DNA of 64,000 nucleotides, taken from an uncultured Dehalococcoidia bacterium. Its GTDB lineage: Bacteria > Chloroflexota > Dehalococcoidia > DSTF01 > JACRBR01. The notes beneath the pieces were generated by a model. The model was not told the DNA's origin. It was given only the letters and a program-made list of their open reading frames with translations, and did no database searches. Location: the NCBI GenBank assembly GCA_964371355.1, contig CAYJMG010000017.1, forward strand, positions 10,277 to 74,276, written 5' to 3'. This document shows, piece after piece, positions 1 to 61,621 of the stretch (its first letter is position 1; every line of letters starts with the position of its first letter). Both the position numbers and the translations under genes were made by a program.

Positions 1-2
1 TC

Positions 3-716: not shown

Positions 717-720
717 GTAC

Positions 721-3047: not shown

Positions 3048-3106
3048 TTCCCAAGAAGCAGATCTTACCGACTTCGCCTATGACGAGATAGCCTCGAGCT
3101 GCGCTG

Positions 3107-4069: not shown

Positions 4070-4118
4070 CTCCGAATCTCTTACCTATAGATTCGGCAGC
4101 GTGCGCCTAATTATGAAC

Positions 4119-4194
4119 TGGAGCGGGAGATGGGACTCGAACCCACGACCCTCTGCTTGGGAAGCAGATGCTCTACCGGCTGAGCTACTCCCGC
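4119..4194 (-). tRNA. tRNA-Gly (anticodon CCC), CCA encoded.
   Basis: Reverse complement reads GCGGGAG-TA-GCTC-AGCCGGTA-GAGC-A-TCTGC-TTCCCAA-GCAGA-GGGTC-GTGGG-TTCGAGT-CCCAT-CTCCCGC-T-CCA. Acceptor stem 7/7, anticodon stem 5/5, GTTCGAGTC T-loop. Confidence 0.85.
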
Positions 4195-30621: not shown

Positions 30622-31574
30622 GCGCGCGCCTTAGCGTGATCGTCGTGAACTTCAACGGCGGCTCGACCGTCCGCCAGTGCCTGGAACACCTGTGGCCGCA
30701 GATCCCCGAGGGCGCAGACGGCTGCGAGGTGGCCCTCGTGGACAACGCTTCCAGCGACCGCAGCGCCGACGGCCTCGAGCGCGCATTCCCGGCCCTGCGA
30801 ATCATCAGGAATCACGAAAACGTCGGATTCGCACGGGCCAACAACCAGGCCATCGTCGACACCACGGGGGAGTACGTCCTGCTGCTGAACCCCGATGTCG
30901 TACTCGCGCCCGGCGCGCTCTCGACGGCGCTGGCATACATGGACGGACACGGCGACGTGAGCATCCTTGGGCCCAAGATCCTGCTGCCCGACGGCCGGCT
31001 CGACCCGGCCGCGCACCGTTCCTTCAAGACGCCGATGACGTACCTGTATCGCATGGCGGGGCTCTCAAGGCTCTTCCCACGCAACCGCATCTTCGGCCGG
31101 TACTACCTGACGTATCTCGACGAGAACTCAATCGCCGACGTCGACTCCGTGGTGGGCGCGTTCCTGCTTATCCGCCGGTCGGTCATCGACGAGATCGGCA
31201 TGCTGGACGAGCGGTTCTTCATGTACTGCGAGGACGAGGACTGGTGCTGGCGCGTAAAGCAGGCAGGGGGCCGCGTCGTGTATCACCCGGGCGTGGTGGC
31301 CCACCACCGAAAAGGAAGCAGCACGCGAACGGTGCCCATCCGCATGGCGTACCACTGGCACCGCTCCCTGTACCTGTACCACCGCAAGAACATCGCGCGC
31401 CGCTACGGCGCGGTGACAAACCTGACGGTGTACGCGGGCATCGCACTATCGCTCGCCGCGAAGGTCGTCCTCCTGACTGCGCATCGCGTCCTTGGCCGCC
31501 GTCCGGTGTCAATGAGGACGGGAGGCATCACCACAGTGGGGCCGCGTCCTGCCGCGCCATCGCCGCCGCGCTGA
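30618..31574 (+). CDS. GT2-family (GT-A) glycosyltransferase.
   Basis: LSVIVVNFNGGSTVRQCL...VALVDNASSD...LLLNPD. GGAGG RBS. Confidence 0.8.
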   Translation: MSARLSVIVVNFNGGSTVRQCLEHLWPQIPEGADGCEVALVDNASSDRSADGLERAFPALRIIRNHENVGFARANNQAIVDTTGEYVLLLNPDVVLAPGALSTALAYMDGHGDVSILGPKILLPDGRLDPAAHRSFKTPMTYLYRMAGLSRLFPRNRIFGRYYLTYLDENSIADVDSVVGAFLLIRRSVIDEIGMLDERFFMYCEDEDWCWRVKQAGGRVVYHPGVVAHHRKGSSTRTVPIRMAYHWHRSLYLYHRKNIARRYGAVTNLTVYAGIALSLAAKVVLLTAHRVLGRRPVSMRTGGITTVGPRPAAPSPPR

Positions 31575-36670: not shown

Positions 36671-36936
36671 CGCGACGACCTCCGCAGGTGATCTTAGCGG
36701 TTCAACAGCTCATTCATCCCGCGCCCGGCGGCGGAACCGCGCGGCCCGGCCTGAAGATCCCGCATCTGCGCCCATCTCAGATACAGGGGCCCGCCGGGCC
36801 AGCGCCTCCGCGAACTCCACGCCACTCGCCATTCGGCATGCCGCAGTTCCGGATGTTCGCCTCGCGGTTTTCGGCCATCCGGCACAACCTCGCAACCGCG
36901 TTGCTGCGGCACAGTGGAGGCGACAGGAGGCGGGTT

Positions 36937-38097
36937 ATGCACACGGACACACGCGGGACGCTGCTGGAAGACGTGCAGTTCGAGGAGTTGGTGCGGCGGC
37001 TCACAGGCTACCGGAACGAGGAGGGCGTGCTCAGCGTCTACCTGGACATCGATCCGGCGACCGCTGCGCGCGAGGGATACGAGGCCGCACTGCTGGCGGC
37101 CTGGAAGCCGCTTAAGGCGCAAAAGATGGATCAGTGGACCCGCGGCCGCCTGGAGTACGAGATGGCCGGGATCACGGAAGAGGTCCAGAGCTGGCGCGAG
37201 GCCCCCGGGCGCTCCGTCGCGATGTTCTTCAGCGGGCCCGGTGGTCTGCGCGTCGTCATCCCCCTGCAATTCCCGCTGCGCACGCTCGCGAGGTTCGAGC
37301 GCCGGCCGCTCATCCGGCCGCTCATCGCGGCCCTGGACGAGCATCACCGCTACTGCCTCGTGATGGTGGACAAGGCGGGGGCGCGCCTCATCACCGTGAT
37401 GCTGGGCCGCGTCGAGGAGGAGATCCACCTCGAGAGCGACATCCTGCCCCGCACGGACGTCGGCGGCTGGGGTGGCTACCTGCAGCCCCGCTACACCCGC
37501 CACCGGGAGCGGCACCTGATCGACCACCTGCACCGCGTCATCGAGCACCTCTGGGCCATCGATCGGTCGCGGCCCATCCATTCTCTCATCCTCAGCGGTC
37601 CCGACGAGCCCGTCAGCGCTCTGCGCCGCCTGCTGCCGAAGGCGCTGGCCCGCTCCGTCGTGGGGGTCGCACACATGGATCTCGACCTGCCGACGCCCGA
37701 GGTCGTCCGCCAGCTGGAAACCCTCGACGCCGAAGGGCGCGCGCGTGAGGACCGCATCGTCGTCACGGAGCTGGCGAACAGGGCGGCCAGGAAGGACCAC
37801 GCCGTGGCGGGCTGGAGCCCCACGCTGGAGGCGCTGAGCGAAGGCCGCGTGCACCTGCTCGTTATCGCCGAGCAGGAGGCACGCACCGGCGCCCAGTGCC
37901 CGGAGGGCCACTTCCTCACGCTGGGCGAGGACGTCCGCACCTGCCCCTTCTGCGAGGAGACACTCTGGCACATCGATGACGTTGCTGAAGCGGCGATCAG
38001 GATCGCGCTGGCGACAGACGCGCAGGTGCGCTTCGTCTCCGGGACGGCGCAGGCCGATCTTGGCGCGGACGGCGTGGCGGCGGAGCTACGCTGGTAG
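36937..38097 (+). CDS. eRF1/Pelota-like (bacterial baeRF-family) protein with a C-terminal zinc-ribbon insert.
   Basis: AGGAGG 8 nt before the ATG at 36937. Central loop DVGGWGGYLQPRYTRHRERHLIDHLHRVIE resembles the eRF1 domain-2 GGQSALRFARLR...VRKVAE. C-terminal CPEGH...CPFCEE. Confidence 0.5.
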   Translation: MHTDTRGTLLEDVQFEELVRRLTGYRNEEGVLSVYLDIDPATAAREGYEAALLAAWKPLKAQKMDQWTRGRLEYEMAGITEEVQSWREAPGRSVAMFFSGPGGLRVVIPLQFPLRTLARFERRPLIRPLIAALDEHHRYCLVMVDKAGARLITVMLGRVEEEIHLESDILPRTDVGGWGGYLQPRYTRHRERHLIDHLHRVIEHLWAIDRSRPIHSLILSGPDEPVSALRRLLPKALARSVVGVAHMDLDLPTPEVVRQLETLDAEGRAREDRIVVTELANRAARKDHAVAGWSPTLEALSEGRVHLLVIAEQEARTGAQCPEGHFLTLGEDVRTCPFCEETLWHIDDVAEAAIRIALATDAQVRFVSGTAQADLGADGVAAELRW

Positions 38098-48531: not shown

Positions 48532-50616
48532 CTATCGCACGCGGATCTGCCCGATGGTGATCAGGTTCGCGGCATCTGCCTGCGCCTGCGTGGGATCGCC
48601 CGTCGAGTCGAACACCGCCAGCCGGATGTCGTACAGGCCCGGCGCCAGGTCGCGCGGGACGAGCGAGAAGTACGACTCCCGGTAGATCGGGCCAGTCTCC
48701 CACTCCGACGTCTCCCGCAGCCCCTGGCCGATGTCGCGGGGCTGCGACCACACCGGGAACCCGCGCCGCTGCAACGCCGCCCCGGCCGAGTCGAACATCA
48801 GGGTGGTCGCGCTCAGGTCGACGTCCACGGCGCCGTCCGCGCGCCAGAAGTACTCCATCTGCACCACGTCGCCCCGCCCGACCTCCGCCACGCCGGTCTG
48901 GAAACCCACCAGCGTGACGCCATGCGCGAACGCGATCTCGCGCTCCGCCCCGGCGGGGGTGCTGGTGACGACCGGGTCCGCCGCCTCCAGCAGCAGCTTG
49001 TACAGGCTGCCCGTCATCACCAGGTCGTCGCGGTACGCCGGCTTCGGCAACGAATCCACGACCATGCGTTCGATCCCCTCCAACAGCACCGGCTGCAGCA
49101 CGAACTCCTCACGCAGTCCGCCGGCCGGCGTCCGCAGGCCCTCCGCGACGTACACGCCGCGCCCTTGCTCCAGATATGGCCGGGCGAACGCGCTCACATC
49201 CTCCCCCGGCACCGAGAAGATCGGCGAGACGAGTACGTCCAGCCGCTCTCGCTCGACGAGCTGTACGTACCACAGCGGCGAGGCCGTCCAGCTATCGGTG
49301 AGGATTACGGACTCCGGCGGCACCCGCTCCAGCGTCGTCCGCGCGAAGTCCAGCGCGTTGTAGTCCTCGCTGCGGTCAACGCGCTCGTAGTTGCGGAAGA
49401 ACAGGAACGCCGGAAGCAGCGCGATGATGGCCGCCATGCCGGCCAGGCTGACGTGCGGCCGGATGCCACCGCGCTCCTCCGCGAGGCGGCGCACGGTCTC
49501 CGCCAGCCAGGCTGCCGCAACACCGATGAACACGCAGAGCCCCAGGTATCCGGGCGTCAGGTAGTTGTAGATGTTGTGGATTCCGTAGGACTCCACCACC
49601 GCCGCGTCCAGCAGGACGAGCATCGCGAAGAACGCGGCCACGGCGCGCGCGCGCAGCGCCAGGATCACCGCGCCGGCACCGCTCAGCGCCAGTCCCGCCC
49701 ACGTCAGGTCGTACGACGGGTATGCCCACAACACGTCGATGCGGTCCGCGATATCGATGCTCCAGTACCCGCCCGGCGTCTGCCCGTTGACGAACATCGA
49801 CCAGTACGTCTGCCACTCGGCCGGCCGCGCCCAGGACAGCGCCGGCTCCATCTCGCCCCGTACCGGCAGGTAGACGTACACACTCAGCCCCAGCAGGAAC
49901 GCGCCGGCGGCCAGCAGACACGCCCGTGGTGTCAGGCTGCGCCAGCCCAGCGCCAGCAGCATCAGCGACGGCGGCGCCACCAGCACGATGAGCCGGTGAT
50001 TGCACAGGCCCAGTCCCAGCGCCAGCCCTGCCAGCACCAGCGCCCGTGCATCGCCTGCCTGCGCCCCCGGAGCATCGGCTCCGCTGGAGGTCGCATCCAC
50101 GGCTGGCAAGCGTCCCCGCCACCAGGTGAGCATGAGACGGGCGATCGCCGCCGTGAAGAACAGGTTCATGCCGTACGACGTCGCCCACGTCGCGTTCGCC
50201 CACACCGTCGACGCGAACGCCAGCGTCAGCGCGCCGGCCGTCGCGCCAATGTAATCGCGTGTCAGGTCGCGAATGATGCCGAACACGATCGCGACCGCCA
50301 GCGCTGTAAACACGGCCGACATCAGGTTGACGCGCCACGCTGTTTCGCCGAACGGAAGGAACGTGAACGCCTTCCCGACGATGATCAGCAGCGGATACCC
50401 GGTGTTGTGCGCGATCCCCAGCGTCGCCGATGTGGTGGCGAACTCGCCCATGTCGTACCACATCACGCTGGGCGCGAGCGTCGTGAGGTAGACGCTGAAC
50501 ACCAGCCCGCCTGTTAGCGCAGCGGCAAGCCACGCCGAAAGGGCCGCACCCACGCGCACGTGCGCCAGCGTCAGCTTCGCTGTGGACAGGCGGCCGCGGG
50601 GCGTATCAAGCTGCAT
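48532..50616 (-). CDS. DUF2723 / TMEM260-like GT-C-fold membrane glycosyltransferase (protein-O-mannosyltransferase-like) with a C-terminal soluble domain.
   Basis: Hallmark N-terminal block YLTTLAPSVMWYDMGEFATTSATLGIAHNTGYPLLIIVGKAFTFLPFGETAWRVNLMSAVF. About 11 TM helices. Overlaps the pilT stop by 11 nt and is co-oriented with it. Confidence 0.6.
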   Translation of the reverse strand: MQLDTPRGRLSTAKLTLAHVRVGAALSAWLAAALTGGLVFSVYLTTLAPSVMWYDMGEFATTSATLGIAHNTGYPLLIIVGKAFTFLPFGETAWRVNLMSAVFTALAVAIVFGIIRDLTRDYIGATAGALTLAFASTVWANATWATSYGMNLFFTAAIARLMLTWWRGRLPAVDATSSGADAPGAQAGDARALVLAGLALGLGLCNHRLIVLVAPPSLMLLALGWRSLTPRACLLAAGAFLLGLSVYVYLPVRGEMEPALSWARPAEWQTYWSMFVNGQTPGGYWSIDIADRIDVLWAYPSYDLTWAGLALSGAGAVILALRARAVAAFFAMLVLLDAAVVESYGIHNIYNYLTPGYLGLCVFIGVAAAWLAETVRRLAEERGGIRPHVSLAGMAAIIALLPAFLFFRNYERVDRSEDYNALDFARTTLERVPPESVILTDSWTASPLWYVQLVERERLDVLVSPIFSVPGEDVSAFARPYLEQGRGVYVAEGLRTPAGGLREEFVLQPVLLEGIERMVVDSLPKPAYRDDLVMTGSLYKLLLEAADPVVTSTPAGAEREIAFAHGVTLVGFQTGVAEVGRGDVVQMEYFWRADGAVDVDLSATTLMFDSAGAALQRRGFPVWSQPRDIGQGLRETSEWETGPIYRESYFSLVPRDLAPGLYDIRLAVFDSTGDPTQAQADAANLITIGQIRVR

Positions 50617-51700
50617 AGGCGGCGCTGCTCCCTAGCAGGCGCCCCAGTTCCTCGGGCGAGCGCGCACACGCGAACGCCGTGTCGCTCGAGATCGTGCGCC
50701 CTCGCACCAGTTCGGCGAGTGCCTGGTCCAGCGTGCGCATGCCGATCGCCGCGCCCGTCGCGATGATGTTCGGGATCTGGTGCGTCTTCTGCTCGCGGAT
50801 GAGGTTGCGGACCGCCGGGGTGCCAAGCATCACCTCGCACGCCGCCACGCGCCCGTCCTCCGCGACCGTCGGCACGAGGATCTGCGCGATGATGCCTTCG
50901 ACGACCATCGAGACCTGCAACCGTATCTGCTGCTGCTGGTGGGCGGGGAACGCATCCACAATGCGGTCGATCGTCTGCGGCGCGTCAGGCGTGTGCAGCG
51001 TCGCGAAGACCAGGTGCCCCGTTTCCGCAGCGGTTATCGCCGCAGCCATCGTATCAAGGTCACGCATCTCGCCCACGAGGATCACATCCGGATCCTGCCG
51101 CAGCGCCCGCCGCAGCGCCTCGGAGAACGAGCGTGTGTCGACGCCGACCTCCCGCTGCTCGATGATGCTCTTGCGGTTGTGGTGTACGAACTCGATCGGG
51201 TCCTCGATCGTAATCACGTGGCGGGCGTCGCGCTCGTTGATGCGCTCGATCATCGCTGCCAGCGTCGTCGACTTCCCGCTGCCCGTAGGCCCGGTAACGA
51301 GCACGAGGCCGCGCGGCAGGCGCGTCAGCCGGTCGCACACGGGCGGCAGCCCCAGATCCTCGATCGACATCACCGCATCGTTCACCAGCCGGAACGAGAA
51401 GTACGGGTATCCCCGCTCGAACGCGGCGTTCACGCGGAAGCGCCCGATGCCCGTCAGCTCGAACGCGTTGTCCAGCTCGCGCTCGTTCACGAACCGCTCG
51501 CGTTCGGCTTCGCCGGCGATAGCGGCCAGCACCGCCTGCAGTGCACCCGCGTCGAGCCGCGGCGCGCCGTCCACCGCGACGAGCGTCCCGTGCAGGCGCA
51601 GGATCGGCGGCGAGTTGTACGAAAGGTGCAGGTCGGACGCCTCGGAGTCGACCATCTGCCGCAGGAGATCCGCCAGCACGGGGGCCGTTCCCTCGCTCAT
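50606..51700 (-). CDS. pilT: Type IV pilus retraction ATPase PilT.
   Basis: GAGGTGA RBS before the ATG at 51700. Walker A GPTGSGKSTT. Asp box. His box HLVFATLHT. About 364 aa. ATGA coupling to pilN. Confidence 0.8.
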   Translation of the reverse strand: MSEGTAPVLADLLRQMVDSEASDLHLSYNSPPILRLHGTLVAVDGAPRLDAGALQAVLAAIAGEAERERFVNERELDNAFELTGIGRFRVNAAFERGYPYFSFRLVNDAVMSIEDLGLPPVCDRLTRLPRGLVLVTGPTGSGKSTTLAAMIERINERDARHVITIEDPIEFVHHNRKSIIEQREVGVDTRSFSEALRRALRQDPDVILVGEMRDLDTMAAAITAAETGHLVFATLHTPDAPQTIDRIVDAFPAHQQQQIRLQVSMVVEGIIAQILVPTVAEDGRVAACEVMLGTPAVRNLIREQKTHQIPNIIATGAAIGMRTLDQALAELVRGRTISSDTAFACARSPEELGRLLGSSAAYAA

Positions 51701-52272
51701 CGTGTCACCTCGACCGTGAACTGTCCCCCCGCCTGCGTGCCTGGCGTGTATGCCGTCATCCGTGCCGCCTCGAATCCGCCCTGGGTCGCCAGCTTCTGGG
51801 CGTACGCGATCCCGTCGAGCGGACCGGTCGCCTGGCCGTCGACCTTGAATCCCGTCGGCGAGCCGGTGACGGCCGTGATGTGCGCGCCGGCAGGCAAGAA
51901 CCCGAAGCCGTACAGCCAGAACATGTCTTCGTACAGCGGGCGCGTCCCGCCCTGCATGAACGCACGCTCGCCCCGCAACGCCTCGAGCCGCGCGTTGCCG
52001 GTGTCGATCTCGATGCGCAGGGCCCGCTGCTGGGCCAGCTCGCTCTCCACGGCGGTCAGCTCGAACTCGGCGCCCTTCGCCAGTTCCAGCGCGTCGTCGG
52101 CGCGCGCCTGCGCCGCCTCCAGCCGGAACGCCAGCGGGATCATCGCGAGCAGCATGACCGCCAGCACTGCGGCCACCCCGAGCGCCATCCACGACACCTG
52201 CGCCGGACGGTACTCCGCCGGCAGCAGGTTGACGTCGACGATCGCAGCCGGGCCGGTGTTCTGCATGCTCAT
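51697..52272 (-). CDS. pilN: Type IV pilus assembly protein PilN.
   Basis: VNLLPAEYR signature, a single TM helix, coiled coil. Confidence 0.6.
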   Translation of the reverse strand: MSMQNTGPAAIVDVNLLPAEYRPAQVSWMALGVAAVLAVMLLAMIPLAFRLEAAQARADDALELAKGAEFELTAVESELAQQRALRIEIDTGNARLEALRGERAFMQGGTRPLYEDMFWLYGFGFLPAGAHITAVTGSPTGFKVDGQATGPLDGIAYAQKLATQGGFEAARMTAYTPGTQAGGQFTVEVTR

Positions 52273-53162
52273 GCGGCAATGTCCTTCAACGCCATGCCGA
52301 CATTGGCCGCGAATCCCACGGTGTCCTGCTCCGGCGACAGCACGAGCCGCAGCGGGGGCATCTCCACCTCACGGCCCGTCATCTCGCGGATCTCGGGCGC
52401 CAGCATCGCCCGGGGCGCCGCGTCGCCGACGAGCGTGATCGGCAGCTGGCCCGCCAACTCGTCGTCGCGGTGCGTGTCGCGATAGAACTTCAGCGTGCGC
52501 GTCAGCTCCTCCGCTAGCTGCCGCGCCCACTCCGTATCCTCTGCGCCCGCCACCAGGTCCACGTGACGGACGACGCTCGGCATGCCGTCGCGGAATATGG
52601 AGATCTCTGCTTCGTCGTCCTCCACGCAGGCGATGACGCTATCGCTTTGCCCAACTGCGCGCGCCGCGGCGATGATGCGCAGGTCCGCCGACTGCGGATG
52701 CAGGCCGGCCGCTCGCGCCGCCGCCACATGCGAATCGACGATATCGCGCGCCACACCGACGACGAATACGACGGCGTTCGTGTCGCGGTCGCGCAGGCGC
52801 GTCCAGCTCACGTACGCGTTCTCCCCCATCATCGGCATCTCGCGCCGGATCTCCCGCGAGACCAGCTCATCGAACCGCTTGCCCTTCACCCTCGGCAGCT
52901 CCAGCACCCGGAACACAGTCCGCTGTGCCGGGACCGCCAGGGCTACCTGCATGCGGCCCTTCCCGCCGAAGTCCCGCGCCTCGCGCAGGATGCGCCCGGT
53001 CGCGTCTGGCTCCACGACGACGCCGTCGGACAGCGAGCCCGCAGGCAACGGCACCCGCCCGGACGACGAGACCCGCCCCTTCCCGCCGATCGTCCAGCGG
53101 ACGCCCGATGGATGGAAGGCGATGGTGAGCACGGGCTGCCGCAGAATTGACCGCAGGTTCAT
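52269..53162 (-). CDS. pilM: Type IV pilus assembly protein PilM-like (actin-fold), atypical N-terminus.
   Basis: C-terminal half resembles PilM/FtsA-like proteins. ATGA-coupled on both sides. The N-terminal ATP-binding motif was not recognised. Confidence 0.5.
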   Translation of the reverse strand: MNLRSILRQPVLTIAFHPSGVRWTIGGKGRVSSSGRVPLPAGSLSDGVVVEPDATGRILREARDFGGKGRMQVALAVPAQRTVFRVLELPRVKGKRFDELVSREIRREMPMMGENAYVSWTRLRDRDTNAVVFVVGVARDIVDSHVAAARAAGLHPQSADLRIIAAARAVGQSDSVIACVEDDEAEISIFRDGMPSVVRHVDLVAGAEDTEWARQLAEELTRTLKFYRDTHRDDELAGQLPITLVGDAAPRAMLAPEIREMTGREVEMPPLRLVLSPEQDTVGFAANVGMALKDIAA

Positions 53163-53797
53163 CGCGCACTCCCCGGCGTCACCACCGCGACGGGCGTCGG
53201 CGGGATGACGAGCGTATACACGCTGAACACGATCTCGGCGTGGGCTGTGTTCGCTTCGTTGACCGACATCGAGGTGATCGTCGGAATGAGGCCGGGCTCC
53301 GCCTCTCCGAGCTGTGTCAGGAAGTCGACCAACTGGCTGACGCCGCCCTCCACGGTCATACGGATCCCTTCGACGTCGTACGTCGCTTCCGCGTTCTTGA
53401 CCTGCGACGATGGAGCGCTCGCCAGACCACGTACGTTCAGCGCCGACGCTGTCGCACGCTGGATGAGCAGCGATGTCGCCGCGTCCGATGACGGATCGAC
53501 GGAGGGCGGCAGGGCCAGAGCCTCGGCCGTGGCAAGGGCCGCCTTTGACCCGGCAAGTTCGTTCTCCAGCCCGGTCGTGTCGACGGGTGGCAGCGCCAGC
53601 AGCGCCTCGGCGTCGGCGTATCGCCGCAGCGCCGTCTCCTCATCGTTGTGGGCCTTCCACGTGCCGGCGAACAACGAGCCGATCGACAGGAGGACAGCCA
53701 CCACGCACACCGCCGTCAGCACGCGTGCGGGGACGTGCAGGCGCTCTCCCGACACGAACATGTCGCTGATTCGGCGAGGGTTCAGTTGAGCTGCCAC
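53159..53797 (-). CDS. Pilus assembly membrane protein (PilO-like: N-terminal TM plus coiled coil).
   Basis: Bitopic architecture and operon position. Weak sequence evidence. Confidence 0.4.
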   Translation of the reverse strand: MAAQLNPRRISDMFVSGERLHVPARVLTAVCVVAVLLSIGSLFAGTWKAHNDEETALRRYADAEALLALPPVDTTGLENELAGSKAALATAEALALPPSVDPSSDAATSLLIQRATASALNVRGLASAPSSQVKNAEATYDVEGIRMTVEGGVSQLVDFLTQLGEAEPGLIPTITSMSVNEANTAHAEIVFSVYTLVIPPTPVAVVTPGSAR

Positions 53798-54513
53798 GAT
53801 GCCACCCTCACCCCGCTATACCCGGCTACCAGCCGCGCGACTGTGCTGCGGCTGCCGGTGGTCGAGCGCACCTCGTAGGTCGCGGCCGGGACGGAGAGCT
53901 GCACCGTCCCCGTCGTCGCCGTATCGGTCGAAACCAGGAGCTGATACGTGCCCGCGCTCGCCAGCGTGAAGTCGGCCCCCACCTGCGGTGCGGTCCCCGC
54001 CGGGGTGAGGCCGCCCGGCTTCACGCACGGCGCTCCGTCGGCCAGCAGCGCCAACCACACCTGCCCCGCGTCGACCGTAATCCGCGCCGAGAGCGTGCCC
54101 GCCTCCGATGCCGACACCGTGTAGCACTTGTCTCCTCCGCCCGATTGCCAGGCCGGCGCTTGCGCCTCCACGGCGGCCTCGCCGGAGACGTACCGGATCT
54201 CCGTTTGCGGGAACGCCTCGCCGTTCACCGTCGCCGGGAACGGCTGCAGGGGCACCGCGGTAAAGGTAGTAACGGCGGTCAGGCGGGGATCCGATATCAG
54301 GCGCCACCCTGACCACTCGATGCCCGCATCCATGCTGTATCGCTCCATCGCCCTGCGCCCGACGAGGCTCGTCGCCTGGGAACCGCCGCTCGCCCCATCC
54401 AGCAGCGGCGCAATGAGGATCACGCCCAGCGCAAGCGCGCCGATGGCGATCGGCAGGGCCTGCCCTCGCTCTCCCCTAGGGGTTATCAGCCACGAAAATA
54501 CGCGTCGCATCAT
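53782..54513 (-). CDS. Hypothetical membrane-anchored or secreted protein in the pilus operon.
   Basis: Start MMRRVFSWLITPRGERGQALPIAIGALALGVILIAPLL (ATGA overlap with the upstream gene). Beta-rich Thr/Gly/Ala composition. Confidence 0.4.
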   Translation of the reverse strand: MMRRVFSWLITPRGERGQALPIAIGALALGVILIAPLLDGASGGSQATSLVGRRAMERYSMDAGIEWSGWRLISDPRLTAVTTFTAVPLQPFPATVNGEAFPQTEIRYVSGEAAVEAQAPAWQSGGGDKCYTVSASEAGTLSARITVDAGQVWLALLADGAPCVKPGGLTPAGTAPQVGADFTLASAGTYQLLVSTDTATTGTVQLSVPAATYEVRSTTGSRSTVARLVAGYSGVRVASWQLN

Positions 54514-57077
54514 GGCGTCAACGCCAGGTAGTAGTAGGTCGAGCCGTTGGTGTTCACCTGCGAGTGCGTCCCGACCTGGAACCCGTCCGCCAGCAGAGAC
54601 TGAATCTTGTTGGCGGCCGACCCGCCGGCGTCCCAGTACAGCGTCCGGTCGCCCGACACGGTGTCCGTGCGCCAGACGCCCTCGCTCGACGCCGAGCGCT
54701 TCGCCCACACGAAGTCCGGCGTAATCCCGACCCCCGTGATGTTCCGGTTGTCCGTACCGTTGCCGACGTAGGAGCCGACCTTCACCTGGGCCGTCGCGTC
54801 GAACGCGATCCAGTAGTAGGTCCGGCCGCTGCCGTTCACGTCGGCGTTCGTCCCCAGCTGGAAGCCGTCGGCCAGGATGGACTGGATCCGGTTGGCGAAC
54901 GAGTTGCCCCCGTTCATCAGGAACGACGCGTCGCCCGCTACCGGCCCCGGCCGGAAGACATCCTGCTCGTTGTCCGCCATCGTCATCACCCAGTCCGGCT
55001 GGAACCCGACGCCCGTGATGCTGCGATTGTCGACTGCGTTGCCGGCGTAGCTGCCGATCTGCACGTTCGTCCCCGCCTTCATCGCCACCCAGTGGTACAG
55101 GCGTCCGCTCGTGTTCACGTTCGCGTTCGACCCGATCTGGAAGCCATCGGCCAAGAACGCCTGGATGTAGTTCGTCTGTAACGACGTGTTGGACGTGATC
55201 CGCTTCGCGCGGTCGGAAGGCATGCTCGACGTGCTGATCACGGGCGCTGTGTTGTTGTCATAGCGGACAATCACGATGTCCGGCTGGAAACCGACACCCG
55301 TGATATCGCGATTATCCGTGCCGTCGCCCGTGTAGCTGCCGGTCGCGAACCAGACCTCCGCCGGCGACGTCGGCGTGGGCGTGTTCGTAAACGTCGGCGT
55401 CGGCGTCGATGTGATCGTAGGCGTCGCTGTCGATGTTGGTGATGCCGCGGCGGCGTCATAGCAAAGCTGGCTCTGCGGGATCACCTGCTTCGCCTGACTC
55501 GCGCTCGACCACGACAGCGCGGCCACCGCGAGACCGCCGTTCTCGTAGAAGTCCATCTGTACCGTGTAGGCGACACCGGCGGTCAGCGCGATCGTCCCGC
55601 TGTTCTCCGTGGTCGCGTGGTCGGTCCAGTTGTTGACGATCTGGGTGCCATCCACCCACAGCCGCACACCGTCGTCGGACTGGGTGTAGAAAGTGTACGT
55701 CTCCGAGTACAGCGGTACGACGTACCCAGTCCATCGGACCGAGAACGTGTCCGCACCGATCGCCGGGTCCGGCGAGCCGGCTGCCCAATCGAAGTTGACT
55801 GTCGCGTCGACCCGGGTCAGCGCCAGCGACGTGAAGTTCGTGTTGTTGTAGTAGTCGCCGCCCAGCCCCGCGCACGTCAGCGCCGGCGTCGGCGTCGATG
55901 TCGGCGTGAACGTGTTGGTCGCCGTGGGCGTATTCGACGGCGTCGGCGTGTTCGTTGGCGTCGGCGTGTTCGTCGGCGTCGATGTCGGCGGCGGCGCGTA
56001 GTACACGTTGATCGGGATCCAGTCCAGGTACAGCTCCTGGCCCGAGTTCCCCAGGTCCATCGTGACGCGCACCCGCAGGTTCGTGTCGTTCAGCTCCGCG
56101 CCGGTCCACGTCCGCCCCCAGGTGTCGGCGCTCGACCCCAGAATCACCGTCGTCTCACTCGTCGGCTCACTGCCGTCGCTCTTGGCGCTCGTCCACGACG
56201 TACCGCCGTCCCACGAGAGCTGCGCGCTGATGCTGTTGCTGCCGCCCGTGTTCTTCAGCCAGTAGTCCAGCCGCAGGGCGATGCCCGTGACGTCGCACCC
56301 GGCCGGCAGGTTCATCCCGTACGTGTAGTACCGGTGCCGGTCGCCGTCGCCGCCGTTATTCGTAGCGTTTCCACCGCCGTCCGCATACGCGTTCGCCGGC
56401 GTGAGTTCGAACCCGTCGCCGTTCCCGCCCGTGTCCGCCACGTTCGCACTCGGGCTCAAGTATCCGGTGCTGCTATTGGTACACGCCGCCGGCGTGAAGG
56501 TCGGGGTCAACGTCGGCGTGTCCGTCGGTGTCGGGGTGGCGGTGAACGTCGGCGTCGGCGTGAACGTCACCGTCGGGAAGGGCGTGGTTGGCAGGTCGTC
56601 GACGCGCATCGTCGTCGTCTCGGTCCGCGTCTGCGTGCCACTGTTGCCCTGCTGCACCGTCAGCGTGTACGTCACGTTGTTGCCCGACTGCGTTGCCGTG
56701 AAACCGCCCGACACGACGTTCCGCGCGACGACGTGTGTGTTCGGCACGCCGCCCACCGTGATCGTGCGCTGCAGCTCGTCGCCCACCTGCTGGAAGCGAC
56801 TGCTGTACGCCGTGCCCGTGCTGTAGTCGGTCCACTGCATCGTCACGTCGCCCGCGGCCACCGCCGCCAGAGACGCAACGCCCGACTGCGTGTCCTGGTT
56901 CAGCCAGAAGAACCCCGTCCGCAACTGGTGCGTCGCCGAAAGCTGGTCCTGGCCCTGCGTCGTCGTCTTCAGGATCGACACCAGCGTCATGCCCGCCGTC
57001 GAGAGGATCATGCTGACGATGGCGATGCCGATCACCAGCTCGACCAGACCGATGCCCAGCTCCCCCCGGCCCTTCAT
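54510..57077 (-). CDS. Giant (855 aa) type IV pilin-like adhesin. N-terminal pilin helix, then a PA14 domain, then three ~93-aa C-terminal repeats separated by Thr/Pro-rich linkers.
   Basis: N-terminus MKGRGELG|IGLVELVIGIAIVSMIL (class III signal-like, Glu at +5). PA14 core FSVRWTGYVVPLYSETYTFYTQSDDGVRLWVDGTQIVNNW...YENGG. Three repeats ITGVGFQPD...ADGFQIG...G..Y. Linkers TPTPTFTATPTPTDTPTLTPTFTP and others. Confidence 0.7.
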   Translation of the reverse strand: MKGRGELGIGLVELVIGIAIVSMILSTAGMTLVSILKTTTQGQDQLSATHQLRTGFFWLNQDTQSGVASLAAVAAGDVTMQWTDYSTGTAYSSRFQQVGDELQRTITVGGVPNTHVVARNVVSGGFTATQSGNNVTYTLTVQQGNSGTQTRTETTTMRVDDLPTTPFPTVTFTPTPTFTATPTPTDTPTLTPTFTPAACTNSSTGYLSPSANVADTGGNGDGFELTPANAYADGGGNATNNGGDGDRHRYYTYGMNLPAGCDVTGIALRLDYWLKNTGGSNSISAQLSWDGGTSWTSAKSDGSEPTSETTVILGSSADTWGRTWTGAELNDTNLRVRVTMDLGNSGQELYLDWIPINVYYAPPPTSTPTNTPTPTNTPTPSNTPTATNTFTPTSTPTPALTCAGLGGDYYNNTNFTSLALTRVDATVNFDWAAGSPDPAIGADTFSVRWTGYVVPLYSETYTFYTQSDDGVRLWVDGTQIVNNWTDHATTENSGTIALTAGVAYTVQMDFYENGGLAVAALSWSSASQAKQVIPQSQLCYDAAAASPTSTATPTITSTPTPTFTNTPTPTSPAEVWFATGSYTGDGTDNRDITGVGFQPDIVIVRYDNNTAPVISTSSMPSDRAKRITSNTSLQTNYIQAFLADGFQIGSNANVNTSGRLYHWVAMKAGTNVQIGSYAGNAVDNRSITGVGFQPDWVMTMADNEQDVFRPGPVAGDASFLMNGGNSFANRIQSILADGFQLGTNADVNGSGRTYYWIAFDATAQVKVGSYVGNGTDNRNITGVGITPDFVWAKRSASSEGVWRTDTVSGDRTLYWDAGGSAANKIQSLLADGFQVGTHSQVNTNGSTYYYLALTP
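55361..56591 (-). repeat. Three interspersed Thr/Pro-codon microsatellite-like tracts (ACG/CCG-rich) encoding the TP linkers of the giant pilin adhesin (about 56490-56591, 55883-55997, 55361-55442).
   Basis: On the + strand they appear as runs of gtcggcgtcgg / gttggcgtcgg units. In the protein they are the TPTPT... linkers. Confidence 0.6.
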
Positions 57078-57442
57078 CGGTCCACCTTGTACCCCTCGAG
57101 GGTGTACACGACGAGGCCGTCCTTCGTGACCTGCACCGTCACGAGCTGGATGTCGGCGTCCCCACCCGAGATCGTGCTCGCGTTCGCGCTCACGGTGTAA
57201 CCGCCGGGCGGGGTTACCGTCGGGTACGACGAGGGCGCCGCCTGGTACGCGGTTTCCTTCGTGTACTCCATCTGCGAACGCGCCAGCTCGTGCGCCGTCG
57301 AGAGCCGGTCGGAGTGGTTGGATGAGAGGACGCCCGTCGACATTCCAGCCAGGAACACGATCAGCGCGATCGCGAGGATCGCGACCGACACCAGCGCTTC
57401 AACGAGCGTGAATCCGTCTTCGGCCCGGAGGCGCGCGATCAT
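57074..57442 (-). CDS. Type IV minor pilin / pseudopilin.
   Basis: Prepilin signal MIARLRAEDG|FTLVEALVSVAILAIAL (G-F cleavage site, Glu+5). Confidence 0.75.
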   Translation of the reverse strand: MIARLRAEDGFTLVEALVSVAILAIALIVFLAGMSTGVLSSNHSDRLSTAHELARSQMEYTKETAYQAAPSSYPTVTPPGGYTVSANASTISGGDADIQLVTVQVTKDGLVVYTLEGYKVDR

Positions 57443-58683
57443 GGCGTGGGCGCCGGACCCGACCCGGCCGTGGCGTCGTTGATGTTCCCGATGAGCTGGT
57501 ACATCGGCATGATCAGCGACAGCGCCACAAAACCGACGATGAGACCCACGACCAGCGTCAGCGCGGGCGTCAGCATCGCCGCCAACGCGTCGACCTTCTG
57601 GTCTACCTCACGCGTGAAGAACGCGGCCGTGATATTGAGGTTGGCGTCCAACGTGCCCGTCTCCTCGCCCACGGCCACCATCTGGACGAGCATCGGCGGG
57701 AAGCATCTCGCGCGGGCCATGGGGCCCGAAAGCCCGTCGCCGTCGATCAGGTCGCGCCGCACGGTCTCCACCTTCTCCCGCAGGATGCTGTTGTCGGTGG
57801 TCTTGACCAGCATGTCCATGACCTCGGTCAGCGGCAGGCCCGCCCGCAGCATCAGCGAGAGCGTGCGACTAAAACGCGCCGCGTTCGCGTTGATGGTGAC
57901 GTCTTTCATCACGGGCACGGTGATCTGCAAGCGATGCAGGAACCGCTTGCCGGCCGGCTGGCCCGCCAGCAGCGTCCCCGCCAGCAGCACGAGCACCGAC
58001 ACTCCGAGGATCTGCACGCGATACGCCGCGGCGAAGTCGCTCGACGCCATCAAGAGGCGTGTCGTGATCGGCAGATCCCCGCCGAACTCGTCAAAAAGCT
58101 GGGTCAGCGCCGGCAGCGCCGTCGTCATCAGGAGGCCCGCCACGCCGACCGCCAGCACCATGATGAACGCCGGGTAGGCGAACGCCGACCGCACCCGCTT
58201 CATCACCTCGTCCTCGCGCTCCATGTAGTCGGCGAGCTGGTTCAGCATCTCCTCCAGCCGCCCCGTGCGCTCGCCCAGCTCCACCATGCGCGGGTACAGC
58301 GTCGGGAAGATAGAGGGGTAACCCCGCAGCGCGTCAGCGAACGTCGTGCCTCCACGGATCTCGCGCGCGATACCCCGGATTGCGTTCGCCAACTGCTTCG
58401 ACGCCGCCTGCTCCTCCAACAGCTCCAGGCAGCGCATGACCGGGACACCGGACTCCAGCAGGGTCGCTAGCTGGCGCGAGAAGGTGATGAGCGCGCGCTT
58501 CTTCACGCCATACAGGCTCGGCAGGATCTTCTCCAGCCCTGGCAGCTCGCGCGCCTTGCGGATACTCACCACGCGGTAGTCCGCGTCCCACAGCGCGCGC
58601 TCGGCCTGCGCCTCGTTCGGGACGTCGATCTGCCCCTGGATCTGCTCGCCCGTTGGGGCGATGGCAACGTAGCGGTACGGCAT
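57439..58683 (-). CDS. pilC: Type IV pilus platform protein PilC (GspF family, two T2SSF domains).
   Basis: GGAGG RBS before the ATG at 58683. Duplicated T2SSF domains. Three TM segments. Confidence 0.8.
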   Translation of the reverse strand: MPYRYVAIAPTGEQIQGQIDVPNEAQAERALWDADYRVVSIRKARELPGLEKILPSLYGVKKRALITFSRQLATLLESGVPVMRCLELLEEQAASKQLANAIRGIAREIRGGTTFADALRGYPSIFPTLYPRMVELGERTGRLEEMLNQLADYMEREDEVMKRVRSAFAYPAFIMVLAVGVAGLLMTTALPALTQLFDEFGGDLPITTRLLMASSDFAAAYRVQILGVSVLVLLAGTLLAGQPAGKRFLHRLQITVPVMKDVTINANAARFSRTLSLMLRAGLPLTEVMDMLVKTTDNSILREKVETVRRDLIDGDGLSGPMARARCFPPMLVQMVAVGEETGTLDANLNITAAFFTREVDQKVDALAAMLTPALTLVVGLIVGFVALSLIMPMYQLIGNINDATAGSGPAPTP

Positions 58684-58694
58684 CAGGCCCCCTC

Positions 58695-60401
58695 CTACGA
58701 GATCGAGTAGACGCTGCGGAGGATTTCCGCCGGCGTGACGACGCCCTGCTTCACCTTCAACATGCCGTCGCGCCGCATCGGGATCATGCCGTCGGCGATC
58801 GCCTGCTCGCGGATCGTGTTCGCGGACGCCCCGGCCAGCAGCAGCCGGCGTATGTCTTCGTTGAGATACAGCACCTCGTACACGCCGATGCGGCCCAGGA
58901 AGCCGGTCTCGGCACAGAGGTTGCACCCCGTGCCCCGCTTCACCACCTCCAGCGCCTCACCGACCTCCGCCTCGTATACGGCCTGCTCCTCGACCCCCGG
59001 TTTCGCGTCCGTCGCACAGTAGGTGCACACCCGCCGCACCATGCGCTGGGCGACGACGCCGATGAGCGACGAAGCGATGAGGAACGCCTCGATATCCAGG
59101 TCGGTCAGGCGCATCAGCACGCCGACCGCATCGTTCGCGTGGATGGACGAGAGGACCAGGTGCCCCGTAAGCGCCGACTGGCAGGCGATGCGCGCCGTCT
59201 CGCTGTCTCGGATCTCACCGACCAGGATCACGTCCGGGTCCAGCCGCATCAGCGAGCGCAGGCCCGTCGCGAACGTGATATCCGCCTTCTCGTTCACCTG
59301 TATCTGGTTGATCCCGTCGAACTGGTACTCGACCGGATCCTCGATCGTCACGATGTTCCGCTCGGCGTCGTTCAGCATGTTCACCGAGGCGTACAGCGTC
59401 GTCGTCTTCCCCGAGCCTGTGGGCCCGCTCACCAGCACCATCCCGAACGGAGAGCGCAGCAGCCGGATATGCCGCTCCAGCGCCGCCGGCGAGAACCCCA
59501 GCTCGCGGAGCGACATGAGCGACACGCTCTTGTCCAGCACGCGCAGCACCATCATCTCCCCGTGCACCGAATCCGACGTCGCCGCGCGCAGATCGACCCG
59601 CTTGCCTTCCACCTCGGTGCTGATCTGCCCGTCCTGCGGGCGCCGCTTCTCGGCGATGTTCATCCCCGACATCACCTTGAAACGGGAGACCAGCGGCGCG
59701 TGCACGTCGCGCGGCAGCCGCATGGACTCGTGCAGCACGCCGTCGATGCGCAGCCGCACCCGGAGCGCGTCAGCCTCCGGTTCCAGGTGGATATCCGACG
59801 CGCGGTCGCGCACCGCCTGGGCCAGCAGCAGATCCGCTGTCCGCACGATCGGCGTCTGGCTGATCTGGAGGTCCAGCTCCTGGCGCTCCGCCTGAGCCTG
59901 GCTATGCAGCGTCGAGGGGACGACCAGCCCCACCTCGCGCTCGATCTCGGACGACACGCGGTAGCTGATGTTGATTGCCCGCCGGATCTCGTCCGGAATA
60001 CCGACCGCGGGCTTGATGTCGAGCCCGGTCATCGACCGCAGCTCTTCGATGATCTGGATGTTCCCGGGATCCGCCATGACAACCAGCAGCGACCGGCCGT
60101 CGGTCTCGACGGGGATCAGGGTGTGTTCGCGGCAGATCTCGGCGGGGACGAGCTGAGTGGCCTCATGCTGGATGTTCGTCCGCATGAGGTCCAGAAACCG
60201 GAGGCCAAGCTGGGTGCTCAGCGCCAGCGCCAGCGCCTCGGCGGTGACCAGCCCCTTTTGGACGACGTACTCACCCAGGCGCATGTCCGCTTCGCGGGCC
60301 TCGGTGGCGGCCCTGGCGACGTCTTCCTCAGAGAGCAAGCCCGCCTCGACCAGCATCTGGCCGAGGCGCTTGCGGAGTGTTGCTGTTGCGGTCGCGTCCA
60401 T
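58695..60401 (-). CDS. pilB: Type IV pilus assembly ATPase PilB (GspE family).
   Basis: N-terminal T2SSE_N domain (LGQMLVEAGLLSEEDV). Walker A GPTGSGKTTTLY. A tetracysteine motif near the C-terminus. Start MDATATA at 60401. The ORF's upstream Arg-rich extension is rejected. Confidence 0.8.
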   Translation of the reverse strand: MDATATATLRKRLGQMLVEAGLLSEEDVARAATEAREADMRLGEYVVQKGLVTAEALALALSTQLGLRFLDLMRTNIQHEATQLVPAEICREHTLIPVETDGRSLLVVMADPGNIQIIEELRSMTGLDIKPAVGIPDEIRRAINISYRVSSEIEREVGLVVPSTLHSQAQAERQELDLQISQTPIVRTADLLLAQAVRDRASDIHLEPEADALRVRLRIDGVLHESMRLPRDVHAPLVSRFKVMSGMNIAEKRRPQDGQISTEVEGKRVDLRAATSDSVHGEMMVLRVLDKSVSLMSLRELGFSPAALERHIRLLRSPFGMVLVSGPTGSGKTTTLYASVNMLNDAERNIVTIEDPVEYQFDGINQIQVNEKADITFATGLRSLMRLDPDVILVGEIRDSETARIACQSALTGHLVLSSIHANDAVGVLMRLTDLDIEAFLIASSLIGVVAQRMVRRVCTYCATDAKPGVEEQAVYEAEVGEALEVVKRGTGCNLCAETGFLGRIGVYEVLYLNEDIRRLLLAGASANTIREQAIADGMIPMRRDGMLKVKQGVVTPAEILRSVYSIS

Positions 60402-60447: not shown

Positions 60448-60798
60448 TTACGGGTAGGCGGCCTGCGACACCTTGCCCGCCGTGTCGACGGTGTAGGTGC
60501 CGTGCGTGGCCGTGCTGCGCATGTACGTCGGTGAGAGGCTGAAGCCGCCCGCCGCCGTCGACATGTCGCTTGTCGCCGTCGTAATCGCCGTGGTCGTCGA
60601 TGAGCTGGTGTTCGCCAGCTTGGCGTCAACGGCCGTCTGCACGATCCGAAGCTCGGCCGCGCCCGCGTTCGTCTTCGACGTGCCCAGAAGGCCGACGAAG
60701 TTCGGCAGGACGACCGCGACCAGGATCCCGAGGATCGCCACCACGATCAGGAGCTCCGTCAGCGTGAAACCCTGTTCACTGTTCAGTTTCTTCAGCAT
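60448..60798 (-). CDS. pilA: Type IV major pilin (PilA-like).
   Basis: Prepilin signal MLKKLNSEQG|FTLTELLIVVAILGILVAVV. 116 aa. First gene of the operon. Confidence 0.8.
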   Translation of the reverse strand: MLKKLNSEQGFTLTELLIVVAILGILVAVVLPNFVGLLGTSKTNAGAAELRIVQTAVDAKLANTSSSTTTAITTATSDMSTAAGGFSLSPTYMRSTATHGTYTVDTAGKVSQAAYP

Positions 60799-61001: not shown

Positions 61002-61169
61002 TCAGCGGCGGCTCCGCGGACGCGATTTCCGTTGCCGCTTCAGGATCGCGTTGCGATACACCTCGCCCAGCGTCGCCCCGTGCTTGCGCATCGCTTCCTG
61101 GCGAGCCTTGCGCCGCCGCTCGCGGCGTTCGGCGCGCGCGTCACGTGGCTCGTCGTCGTGGCCCTTCAT
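61002..61169 (-). CDS. Possible small Arg/Lys-rich protein (55 aa); very uncertain.
   Basis: ORF MKGHDDEPRDARAERRERRRKARQEAMRKHGATLGEVYRNAILKRQRKSRPRSRR. No clear RBS. Overlaps the SDR remnant. Confidence 0.15.
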   Translation of the reverse strand: MKGHDDEPRDARAERRERRRKARQEAMRKHGATLGEVYRNAILKRQRKSRPRSRR

Positions 61170-61621
61170 GGCTGCGCAGCGTGCTTGAGCCCTGCCAGGA
61201 ACTTCTTGTCGCCCTGGCACAGGTCGGCGCCGCTGTTCACGCTCTCCTTTAACAACATACGGCTGTAGAAATGCTGGCCGCTCAACGCCCTTGCGTCCTC
61301 GCCGCAGAGGTAGATCGCGGCGCGCCCCACCGCCTCCGGCCGCTCACGCATCGGGCCGACAGACGGCATGGTCTCGTCCTGCTGGTAGAAGAGGATCCCC
61401 GGCGTGGGTACCCACCCCAGCGGCGACAGCGCGAACACGCGGACGTTGTGCCCCTGCTCCTCCGCGGCCAGCCCTCTGGCCAGCTCGCGTAGCGGGTGCT
61501 TCGTCAGTATGTAGCTGATGTTCCCGGCGCCCGCCTGGCCGGCGGCGATCGACGAGATGTTGATGGCCGCTTTCCCTTCGAGCTGCTTCATGGGATGGAA
61601 CTCCCCGACCAGCACAGACAA
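61166..61621 (-). pseudogene. N-terminally truncated SDR remnant (C-terminal ~150 aa only).
   Basis: NISSIAAGQAGAGNISYILTKH (S...YxxxK) and the NVRVFALSPLGWVPTP tail are present. There is no Rossmann N-terminus and no room for one upstream. Confidence 0.45.

Follow-up and report, generated by a model that had tools for sequence, protein, structure and literature searches.

A TMEM260-like (DUF2723) GT-C glycosyltransferase at the end of a Chloroflexota type IV pilus operon is a candidate pilus-dedicated protein O-glycosyltransferase

The stretch of DNA analysed here (64,000 nucleotides of contig CAYJMG010000017.1, from an uncultured Dehalococcoidia bacterium; hereafter the window) carries a type IV pilus operon whose last gene, at 48532-50616 on the minus strand, encodes a membrane glycosyltransferase of the TMEM260-like family, formerly DUF2723. 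This is a large bacterial family to which, to our knowledge, no bacterial function has been assigned. The protein has the GT-C fold and keeps three residues that are essential in human TMEM260, its gene is translationally coupled to the pilT gene, and its orthologues lie beside pilus genes in related genomes. From these observations we infer that the gene product is probably a protein O-glycosyltransferase with an accessory role, dedicated to the type IV pilus and with the major pilin as its most likely conserved acceptor.

Results

The glycosyltransferase shares the membrane core and catalytic residues of human TMEM260

The glycosyltransferase is 694 amino acids long, and its gene has a G+C content of 0.90 at third codon positions, in a window of approximately 69% G+C. 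A sequence-only reading of the window had placed the protein in the DUF2723 family, and this assignment was borne out by a hidden Markov model search, in which PF11028 matched residues 55-221 with an E value of 2.9e-31 (109.1 bits, against a cut-off of 24.2) and was the sole Pfam family to match the protein. A profile of 104 homologues of 35-77% identity matched the solved structure of human TMEM260 (9rql_A) with an E value of 2.5e-42. The match pairs profile positions 25-436 with chain residues 34-462, and spans the whole transmembrane core and reaches into the start of the luminal domain.

The AlphaFold2 model of the glycosyltransferase, built with the 104-homologue alignment, reached a predicted local distance difference test score (pLDDT) of 93.4 and a predicted template modelling score (pTM) of 0.92. 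As delimited by the secondary structure of the model and by Foldseek, the transmembrane GT-C module comprises residues 24-413 (49378-50547; this and all other positions within the operon are on the minus strand) and has about 11 transmembrane helices. The N-terminus, with its R/K-rich residues 1-23, is probably cytoplasmic. Foldseek returned the usual set of GT-C structures for the model, with ArnT as the best match together with STT3/AglB, DPY19, ALG9/12 and Pmt4.

A 2026 cryo-electron microscopy preprint divides human TMEM260 into a GT-C "wrist", a Rossmann-like "palm" and "fingers" made of tetratricopeptide repeats (TPRs), and reports that activity needs D52, H67, R264, Y267 and D441. In that work, in which D52A and a mutation of H67 were tested, D52 and H67 serve donor alignment, R264 and Y267 contact phosphate and sugar, R355 of transmembrane helix 10 contacts the mannose, and D441 is the proposed catalytic base. 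When our protein was aligned with 9rql by HMMER, its residues D55, H70 and D441 fell residue by residue on D52, H67 and D441 of the human enzyme, and all three are invariant in the 104 homologues. D55 and H70 belong to the first outer loop (residues 49-76; 50389-50472), recognized by its invariance and by the 9rql alignment, which carries the motif WYD55MGE58F...GIAH70NTGYP. D441 (49294-49296) is carried by the extracytoplasmic Rossmann-like palm (residues approximately 420-525; 49042-49359), which was placed by the model and the alignment. The alignment and invariance of the three residues make it very probable that the glycosyltransferase is active and works by the mechanism of TMEM260.

Beyond the palm, the model shows a C-terminal β-sandwich (residues 530-694; 48535-49029) in place of the TPR fingers of TMEM260. 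Its Foldseek match is the carbohydrate-binding domain of Wzt (8dky; E=2.5e-4, TM score 0.59), and, judging from the model, the sandwich is likely an acceptor- or glycan-binding domain. The full module of palm plus sandwich is restricted to about 20 clusters at 50% identity, whose full-length members are all approximately 670-690 amino acids long. The sandwich alone is found, in tandem, in hundreds of other proteins, mostly of 800-1100 amino acids, and six of ten sampled sandwich-bearing proteins were GT-C enzymes of other types (PMT_2/PMT or YfhO). The window's glycosyltransferase also carries an Ala/Gly/Asp-rich insertion of 19 amino acids, AVDATSSGADAPGAQAGDA, at residues approximately 170-188 (window approximately 50049-50108), in a predicted loop between transmembrane helices 4 and 5 that was modelled with low confidence. 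This insertion is missing from 17 other aligned homologues and accounts for the length of 694 as opposed to 675 amino acids.

The glycosyltransferase gene closes a compact pilus operon

The pilus genes form a single compact operon of 11 tightly coupled genes, which runs on the minus strand from approximately 60.8 kb to 48.5 kb. With a major pilin that has a prepilin motif, PilB, PilC, PilM, PilT and minor pilins, it is a type IVa-like pilus operon. Every junction from pilC through the glycosyltransferase gene is an overlap of 4-16 nucleotides; that between pilT (50606-51700) and the glycosyltransferase is an overlap of 11 nucleotides (50606-50616), as the sequence-only reading had reported. 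The same reading had called the glycosyltransferase the last gene of the operon, which is correct because the next gene, for an FGGY kinase, is convergent with it; the end of this kinase gene, at 48526, is 5 nucleotides from the glycosyltransferase stop codon.

The ATG start codon at 50616 is backed by the N-terminal sequence MQL[DE]xPR, which is conserved in close homologues. In addition, independent gene calls on public contigs that encode an identical protein (19 contigs read, three of them shown) gave the same 694-residue product and the same 11-nucleotide overlap. GTG codons at positions 20, 22 and 39, any of which would abolish the overlap with pilT if used as a start, were rejected on these two grounds. 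A scan for sigma-70-like promoters detected none inside the operon, although such a scan is uninformative for Chloroflexota promoters, and a terminator scan of the operon returned terminator-like matches only at background level.

Linkage to pilus genes is kept across related Chloroflexota

We scanned for orthologues of the enzyme in one genome per GTDB species and scored their pilus neighbours by tblastn with the pilus proteins of the window. The scan recovered 41 loci, all of them from Chloroflexota metagenome-assembled genomes (MAGs), and pilus genes lay beside the orthologue in 38. The three exceptions were one contig of 2.8 kb and two distant paralogues that match in the N-terminal part only.

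The arrangement of the linked genes varies. In 30 Dehalococcoidia-type loci, pilT is immediately upstream of the glycosyltransferase gene on the same strand, and the projected junction is mostly a short overlap. Such a start/stop overlap is seen in many loci, where it is often about 8 nucleotides as projected from tblastn, compared with the 11 nucleotides found here. Within these 30 loci is a subgroup in which the major pilin and pilB come after the glycosyltransferase. Such a permuted operon is found in one Dehalococcoidia subgroup (L015, L016, L019, L021, L024, L032, L033, L036 and L077), where the two genes lie approximately 100-250 nucleotides after the glycosyltransferase and not at the operon start. 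In seven Anaerolineae loci, with enzymes of 35-39% identity, the glycosyltransferase is convergent with the major pilin, at the end of an operon that runs in the opposite direction. L025 has the pilin first and then the glycosyltransferase, and in a more distant clade (P0398), the glycosyltransferase is again convergent with a pilin, beside pilB and pilC. Adjacency to pilus genes is thus kept across at least four gene arrangements and down to 35% identity. Distant paralogues (L040, L041 and a type of 913 amino acids) have no pilus genes nearby.

In the reverse test, metagenome contigs were scanned with the 243-amino-acid protein of the operon as a marker, which yielded 48 loci, 15 of them with DNA extending beyond pilT. 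The glycosyltransferase was present beyond pilT in 13 of these 15 pilus-gene-seeded operons. In one of the other two, L043, whose pilus proteins are 74-86% identical to those of the window, only an 84-nucleotide remnant of the glycosyltransferase gene, matching residues 341-368 at 75% identity, is left in the space that separates pilT from the FGGY kinase, which is the same as in the window and again convergent (L043:13857-14045). The pilus operon of this locus is intact, and, from its sequence, it looks like a natural deletion of the glycosyltransferase gene. The other locus, L056, has no glycosyltransferase beyond pilT. Because the linkage survives rearrangement and the gene is occasionally lost, the glycosyltransferase appears to be an accessory, pilus-dedicated enzyme and not a core part of the pilus machine or a chance neighbour.

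Candidate acceptors among the proteins of the operon

The major pilin (60448-60798; a precursor of 116 amino acids, recognized by its prepilin motif and by N_methyl and PilA/GspG-like matches) includes the peptide LANTSSSTTTAITTATSDMSTAAGGFSLSPTYMR. Its mature form has 106 amino acids, of which 27% are Ser or Thr, with a Thr/Ser cluster at T64-S77 (60559-60609). In an alignment of 111 sequences, T76 is invariant and T68, T69 and T73 are nearly so; the consensus of the cluster is TTTAITTATSD in Dehalococcoidia and YP(D/T)TTT(I/V)TA in Anaerolineae. The Thr cluster comes right after helix α1 in every major pilin recovered from these loci, and in the AlphaFold2 model of the pilin (pLDDT 92) it occupies the loop and the first strand that directly follow this helix. 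A Foldseek search of the pilin model against the PDB gave nothing significant, the top match being Thermus PilA5 (E=4). Before assembly, pilins wait in the membrane with the region after α1 at the outer face, which is where the active site of a GT-C enzyme sits. We also compared by eye the acceptor sequon of TMEM260, [GA]-G-G-x-x-[ST], with the conserved AAGGF[SG]L of the pilin, and found that it does not fit.

The second candidate is a pilin-like protein of 855 amino acids. Its prepilin-type N-terminus reads G|IGLVE, for which orthologues have G|FTLVE or G|MTLVE, and it is followed by linker 1, a domain of about 160 amino acids without a family, linker 2, a PA14 domain, linker 3 and DUF7483 repeats. 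The three Thr/Pro-rich linkers pointed out by the sequence-only reading are indeed present, at residues 162-197 (56487-56594), 359-399 (55881-56003) and 546-574 (55356-55442), and each contains 16-19 Ser/Thr residues. That reading regarded them as the acceptors of the enzyme, and one could envision that they are the main or only ones, with mannosylation in the manner of the protein O-mannosyltransferases (PMTs) protecting the linkers and stiffening a tip adhesin. Thr/Pro-rich linkers are established O-mannosylation sites of the actinobacterial PMTs of family GT39, the prepilin N-terminus would place the 855-residue protein in the same membrane as the enzyme, and versions of this protein with the linkers are found in nearly all Dehalococcoidia loci that have the glycosyltransferase. 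However, six of the seven Anaerolineae loci retain the linkage of glycosyltransferase and pilus genes with no Thr/Pro-linker protein in the operon, and in those loci, as well as in L025 and L093, the glycosyltransferase gene directly adjoins that of the major pilin. Furthermore, TMEM260 recognizes a defined extended sequon and not generic Pro/Thr repeats. Thr/Pro linkers also appear to be common in secreted Chloroflexota proteins, and hence would need no dedicated enzyme. We therefore consider it unlikely that the linkers are the principal target.

Since the linkage is kept in Anaerolineae loci that lack the linker protein, we place the major pilin first among the candidates for a conserved acceptor; the Thr cluster after helix α1 is, on the strength of its conservation, the most likely site. 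It is plausible that the linkers of the 855-residue protein are additional, secondary acceptors in Dehalococcoidia. Of the earlier proposal, then, the tie of the enzyme to the pilus is strongly backed by the conserved neighbourhood, and the catalytic residues are retained, whereas the linkers did not hold up as its conserved partner.

Other genes of the operon

Upstream of the glycosyltransferase gene, the pilT product (364 amino acids) is identified as the retraction ATPase by TIGR01420 (450 bits against a cut-off of 319), and its end by the junction sequence. The next gene (51697-52272) encodes a protein of 191 amino acids that has no family match and is called PilN-like from its position and conserved synteny, because it stands between pilM and pilT in related loci as well. 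pilM (52269-53162) is recognized by PF11104 (E=1.9e-9), with TIGR01175 under its cut-off, and a PilO/GspM-like protein of 212 amino acids (53159-53797) by a weak match to NF040576 (E=1.2e-4) and by conserved synteny. The marker used in the reverse test, a 243-residue protein with an N-terminal hydrophobic helix (53782-54513), is specific to this operon type, as seen from an alignment of the protein and from the 48 related loci. The gene for the 855-residue protein occupies 54510-57077, and its assignment rests on PA14 (E=5e-26), DUF7483 (E=2e-25) and the prepilin motif of its orthologues. A minor pilin of 122 amino acids (57074-57442) matches N_methyl (PF07963) and PilV/GspI-like families. The platform protein gene pilC (57439-58683) has full-length tblastn matches in related loci and a T2SSF annotation in L093, and that of the assembly ATPase, pilB (58695-60401), was given the Met codon at 60401 as its start, from residues 1-5 of which its orthologues align.

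Neither PilD nor PilQ was found among the operon genes of the window, and no prepilin peptidase gene was noticed there. The Anaerolineae operons (L026-L031 and L037) have a prepilin-peptidase-like (PilD) gene between pilM and pilT, and L093 has a pilB fusion that includes a receiver domain of the response-regulator type (L093:12923-14872). Just upstream of the pilin promoter region of the window, the match of an open reading frame of 151 codons (61166-61621, minus strand) to a short-chain dehydrogenase profile is confined to its C-terminal half (positions 117-230 of the 236 in the profile), and the frame is, from this partial match, probably a truncated gene remnant.

Other features of the window

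A large polysaccharide biosynthesis cluster of the Wzx/Wzy type occupies 4661-31574 on the plus strand. It encodes a protein with a ParA/MinD-type P-loop ATPase domain, DUF4012, a polyprenyl glycosylphosphotransferase, two epimerase/dehydratases, a Wzx-like flippase, a fused nucleotidyltransferase and heptose isomerase (GmhA-like) with a GHMP kinase, five methyltransferases (one of them TylF-like), five GT4 and one GT2 glycosyltransferases and an HpsL-like membrane protein, and it shows weak matches to cyanobacterial hormogonium-polysaccharide proteins. Within 3107-4194 on the minus strand, a tyrosine recombinase of the phage integrase family lies directly beside a tRNA-Gly(CCC) gene (4119-4194), and the G+C content falls to 59-62% in the first 4 kb (1-4000); an integrated element probably has its border here. 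The gene at 36688-38097 on the plus strand, beside formate-dehydrogenase-like and NuoF-like genes, encodes a protein with a bacterial archaeo-eukaryotic release-factor-like domain (baeRF family 10 / acVLRF1).

Discussion

The interpretation that we favour, and hold to be reasonably probable, is that the operon ends in a gene for a protein O-glycosyltransferase that serves the type IV pilus as an accessory enzyme. According to this model, the 11-helix GT-C protein would have its active site at the outer face of the cytoplasmic membrane, where it would take a single sugar, possibly mannose, from a polyprenyl-phosphate-sugar donor. By analogy with human TMEM260, the donor would be held by D55 and H70 of the first outer loop, and the acceptor hydroxyl would be deprotonated by D441 of the palm. 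The sugar would be moved to Ser/Thr hydroxyls of pilin-type proteins while the N-terminal helix of these still holds them in the membrane, before assembly driven by PilB. The C-terminal β-sandwich would choose the acceptor.

Several observations weigh against this model. First, the residues that contact the phosphate and sugar in TMEM260, R264 and Y267, have N277 and T280 opposite them in the alignment, and the mannose contact R355 sits in an insertion that is not aligned to the profile. With these contacts unmatched, the donor chemistry may differ from that of TMEM260, and mannose, which the sequence-only reading had proposed, cannot be assumed; the family-invariant residues R253, H347 and Y352 might stand in for the three contacts. 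Second, the 64-kb window yielded no polyprenyl-phosphate-sugar synthase, a class that includes the polyprenyl-phosphate-mannose synthase that the reading had suggested looking for in the genome. The only GT2 enzyme of the window (30618-31574) was rejected as a donor synthase, because it resembles a generic rhamnosyl/extracellular-polysaccharide-type transferase and not Ppm1 or GtrB. Third, the pilins of L043 and L056, which lack the glycosyltransferase, keep the Thr cluster, so that presence or absence does not discriminate here. Fourth, in one close sub-lineage, P0389, pilus genes are absent from the surrounding 10 kb. Moreover, the loci are phylogenetically related, so that the counts given above are of non-independent events, and all carrier organisms are uncultured MAGs. 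Finally, the best Foldseek match of the model is ArnT, GT-C enzymes also modify lipids and polysaccharides, and the β-sandwich resembles the glycan-binding domain of Wzt.

The last of these points raises an alternative in which the acceptor is not a protein, but a lipid or else a polysaccharide of the cell wall or surface, and the gene is kept with the pilus genes for envelope remodelling during pilus passage or adhesion. ArnT, which is among the best fold matches, is a lipid A transferase, the β-sandwich is similar to the O-antigen-binding domain of Wzt and recurs in other bacterial GT-C enzymes, and the Wzx/Wzy-type cluster lies 17 kb away in the window. Nevertheless, the sole characterized member of the family is a protein O-mannosyltransferase, and the acceptor-activating base of the Rossmann-like domain, D441, is invariant. 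In 38 of the 41 loci, the gene is linked specifically with those of PilT and the major pilin and not with polysaccharide genes, and those membrane glycosyltransferases encoded next to pilins that have been studied, TfpW and TfpO, act on pilins. For these reasons, we think that a non-protein acceptor is rather improbable, more so than the linkers as main or only target.

That the gene has no functional link to the pilus, being a neighbour by inherited synteny or having lost catalysis to partner the pilus machine as a structural membrane protein, is very improbable. All loci come from one phylum, so that the synteny is partly inherited, L043 and L056 can dispense with the gene, and in one sub-lineage it stands apart from pilus genes, but the adjacency outlives at least four arrangements and divergence to 35% identity, the start/stop overlap with pilT recurs in many loci, the catalytic residues are invariant, and the paralogues outside the clade have no pilus linkage.

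The proposed pilus-dedicated O-glycosyltransferase can be compared with several known systems. Human TMEM260 (PF11028; PDB 9rql, 9rqm and 9rqn), a protein O-mannosyltransferase of IPT domains, is homologous to it over the 11-helix GT-C core and the start of the Rossmann-like domain. D52, H67 and D441 of the human enzyme are kept as D55, H70 and D441, and both enzymes join a donor-binding membrane core to an extracytoplasmic acceptor-binding module. They differ in that the bacterial enzyme has a β-sandwich where TMEM260 has TPR fingers and does not conserve R264 and Y267, with R355 unaligned. Given the bacterial host, the carrier would be a bacterial polyprenyl phosphate and not dolichol, and the presumed acceptor is a pilin and not an IPT domain.

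TfpW, the D-arabinofuranosyl transferase of Pseudomonas aeruginosa group IV pilins, is a GT-C enzyme encoded beside pilA that O-glycosylates the pilin at Thr64 and Thr66, the same pilin region as the Thr cluster described here. At 646 amino acids, it is of similar size, and it likewise has 11 predicted transmembrane helices, a large outer C-terminal domain and a gene in the pilus locus; both enzymes are accessory, TfpW being strain-variable. However, TfpW is described as having a DDX motif and a TPR domain, which sets apart the present enzyme with its WYDMGE motif, Rossmann-like domain and β-sandwich. Its gene follows pilA, whereas the glycosyltransferase gene here follows pilT, and no genes of the D-arabinofuranose pathway were seen in the window.

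PglL and TfpO (PilO) of Neisseria and Pseudomonas also sit in the membrane and O-glycosylate pilins on its periplasmic side, and TfpO is encoded directly after pilA. They are of the Wzy_C/O-antigen-ligase type, for which our glycosyltransferase has no Pfam match, and they transfer preassembled oligosaccharides linked to undecaprenyl diphosphate, as opposed to the monosaccharide from a polyprenyl monophosphate that we propose. With the actinobacterial and fungal PMTs (GT39), the enzyme shares the GT-C fold, as indicated by the Foldseek match to Pmt4, an acidic residue in the first outer loop and, as proposed here, Ser/Thr O-glycosylation from a polyprenyl-phosphate sugar, and some of its homologues carry weak PMT_2 or precomputed PF13231 matches. 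The analogy to actinobacterial PMTs drawn by the sequence-only reading is nevertheless a loose one. The protein itself matched PF11028 only, with no match to PF02366 or PF13231 at E<=0.01, its C-terminal module is Rossmann-like plus β-sandwich and not MIR or TPR, with no MIR-like domain in the model, and the operon context is different.

Pilin glycosylation by membrane enzymes encoded in the pilus locus is already established, and what the present enzyme adds is a concrete, testable candidate role in bacteria for a large uncharacterized family. The sequence-only reading had taken an operon-encoded pilin or adhesin O-glycosylation system of this type to be undescribed; the case of TfpW beside pilA removes that claim for membrane GT-C enzymes in general, but the novelty of a DUF2723/TMEM260-type enzyme in the role stands in the literature that we searched. 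That literature held no prior description of a bacterial function for DUF2723/TMEM260 or of a Chloroflexota pilin glycosyltransferase, and the term "DUF2723" occurs in it only in the human TMEM260 study. A 2025 study reported probable Thr O-glycans on a Chloroflexota archaellin, with no enzyme assigned.

More broadly, we regard it as evenly balanced that a Chloroflexota clade of the family consists of pilus-dedicated O-glycosyltransferases that share the donor core and catalytic base of TMEM260 and have a different acceptor-reading domain, with the major pilin as acceptor and, in Dehalococcoidia, the Thr/Pro linkers of the tip adhesin in addition. This would be the first bacterial function for DUF2723/TMEM260, and such enzymes could be the O-glycosylation machinery of other type IV filaments of Chloroflexota, such as the archaellum. 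If our model is correct, they would represent a third enzyme family in pilin O-glycosylation, beside TfpO/PglL and TfpW, and might explain the Thr O-glycans on surface filaments of Chloroflexota. Mutation of human TMEM260 causes a congenital heart and kidney syndrome, and a bacterial clade with a pilus substrate context and the same catalytic residues would be a tractable model for the mechanism and evolution of the family. Pilin glycans influence phage resistance, adhesion and filament solubility, and these effects would bear on the ecology of the abundant uncultured Chloroflexota of soils and sediments.

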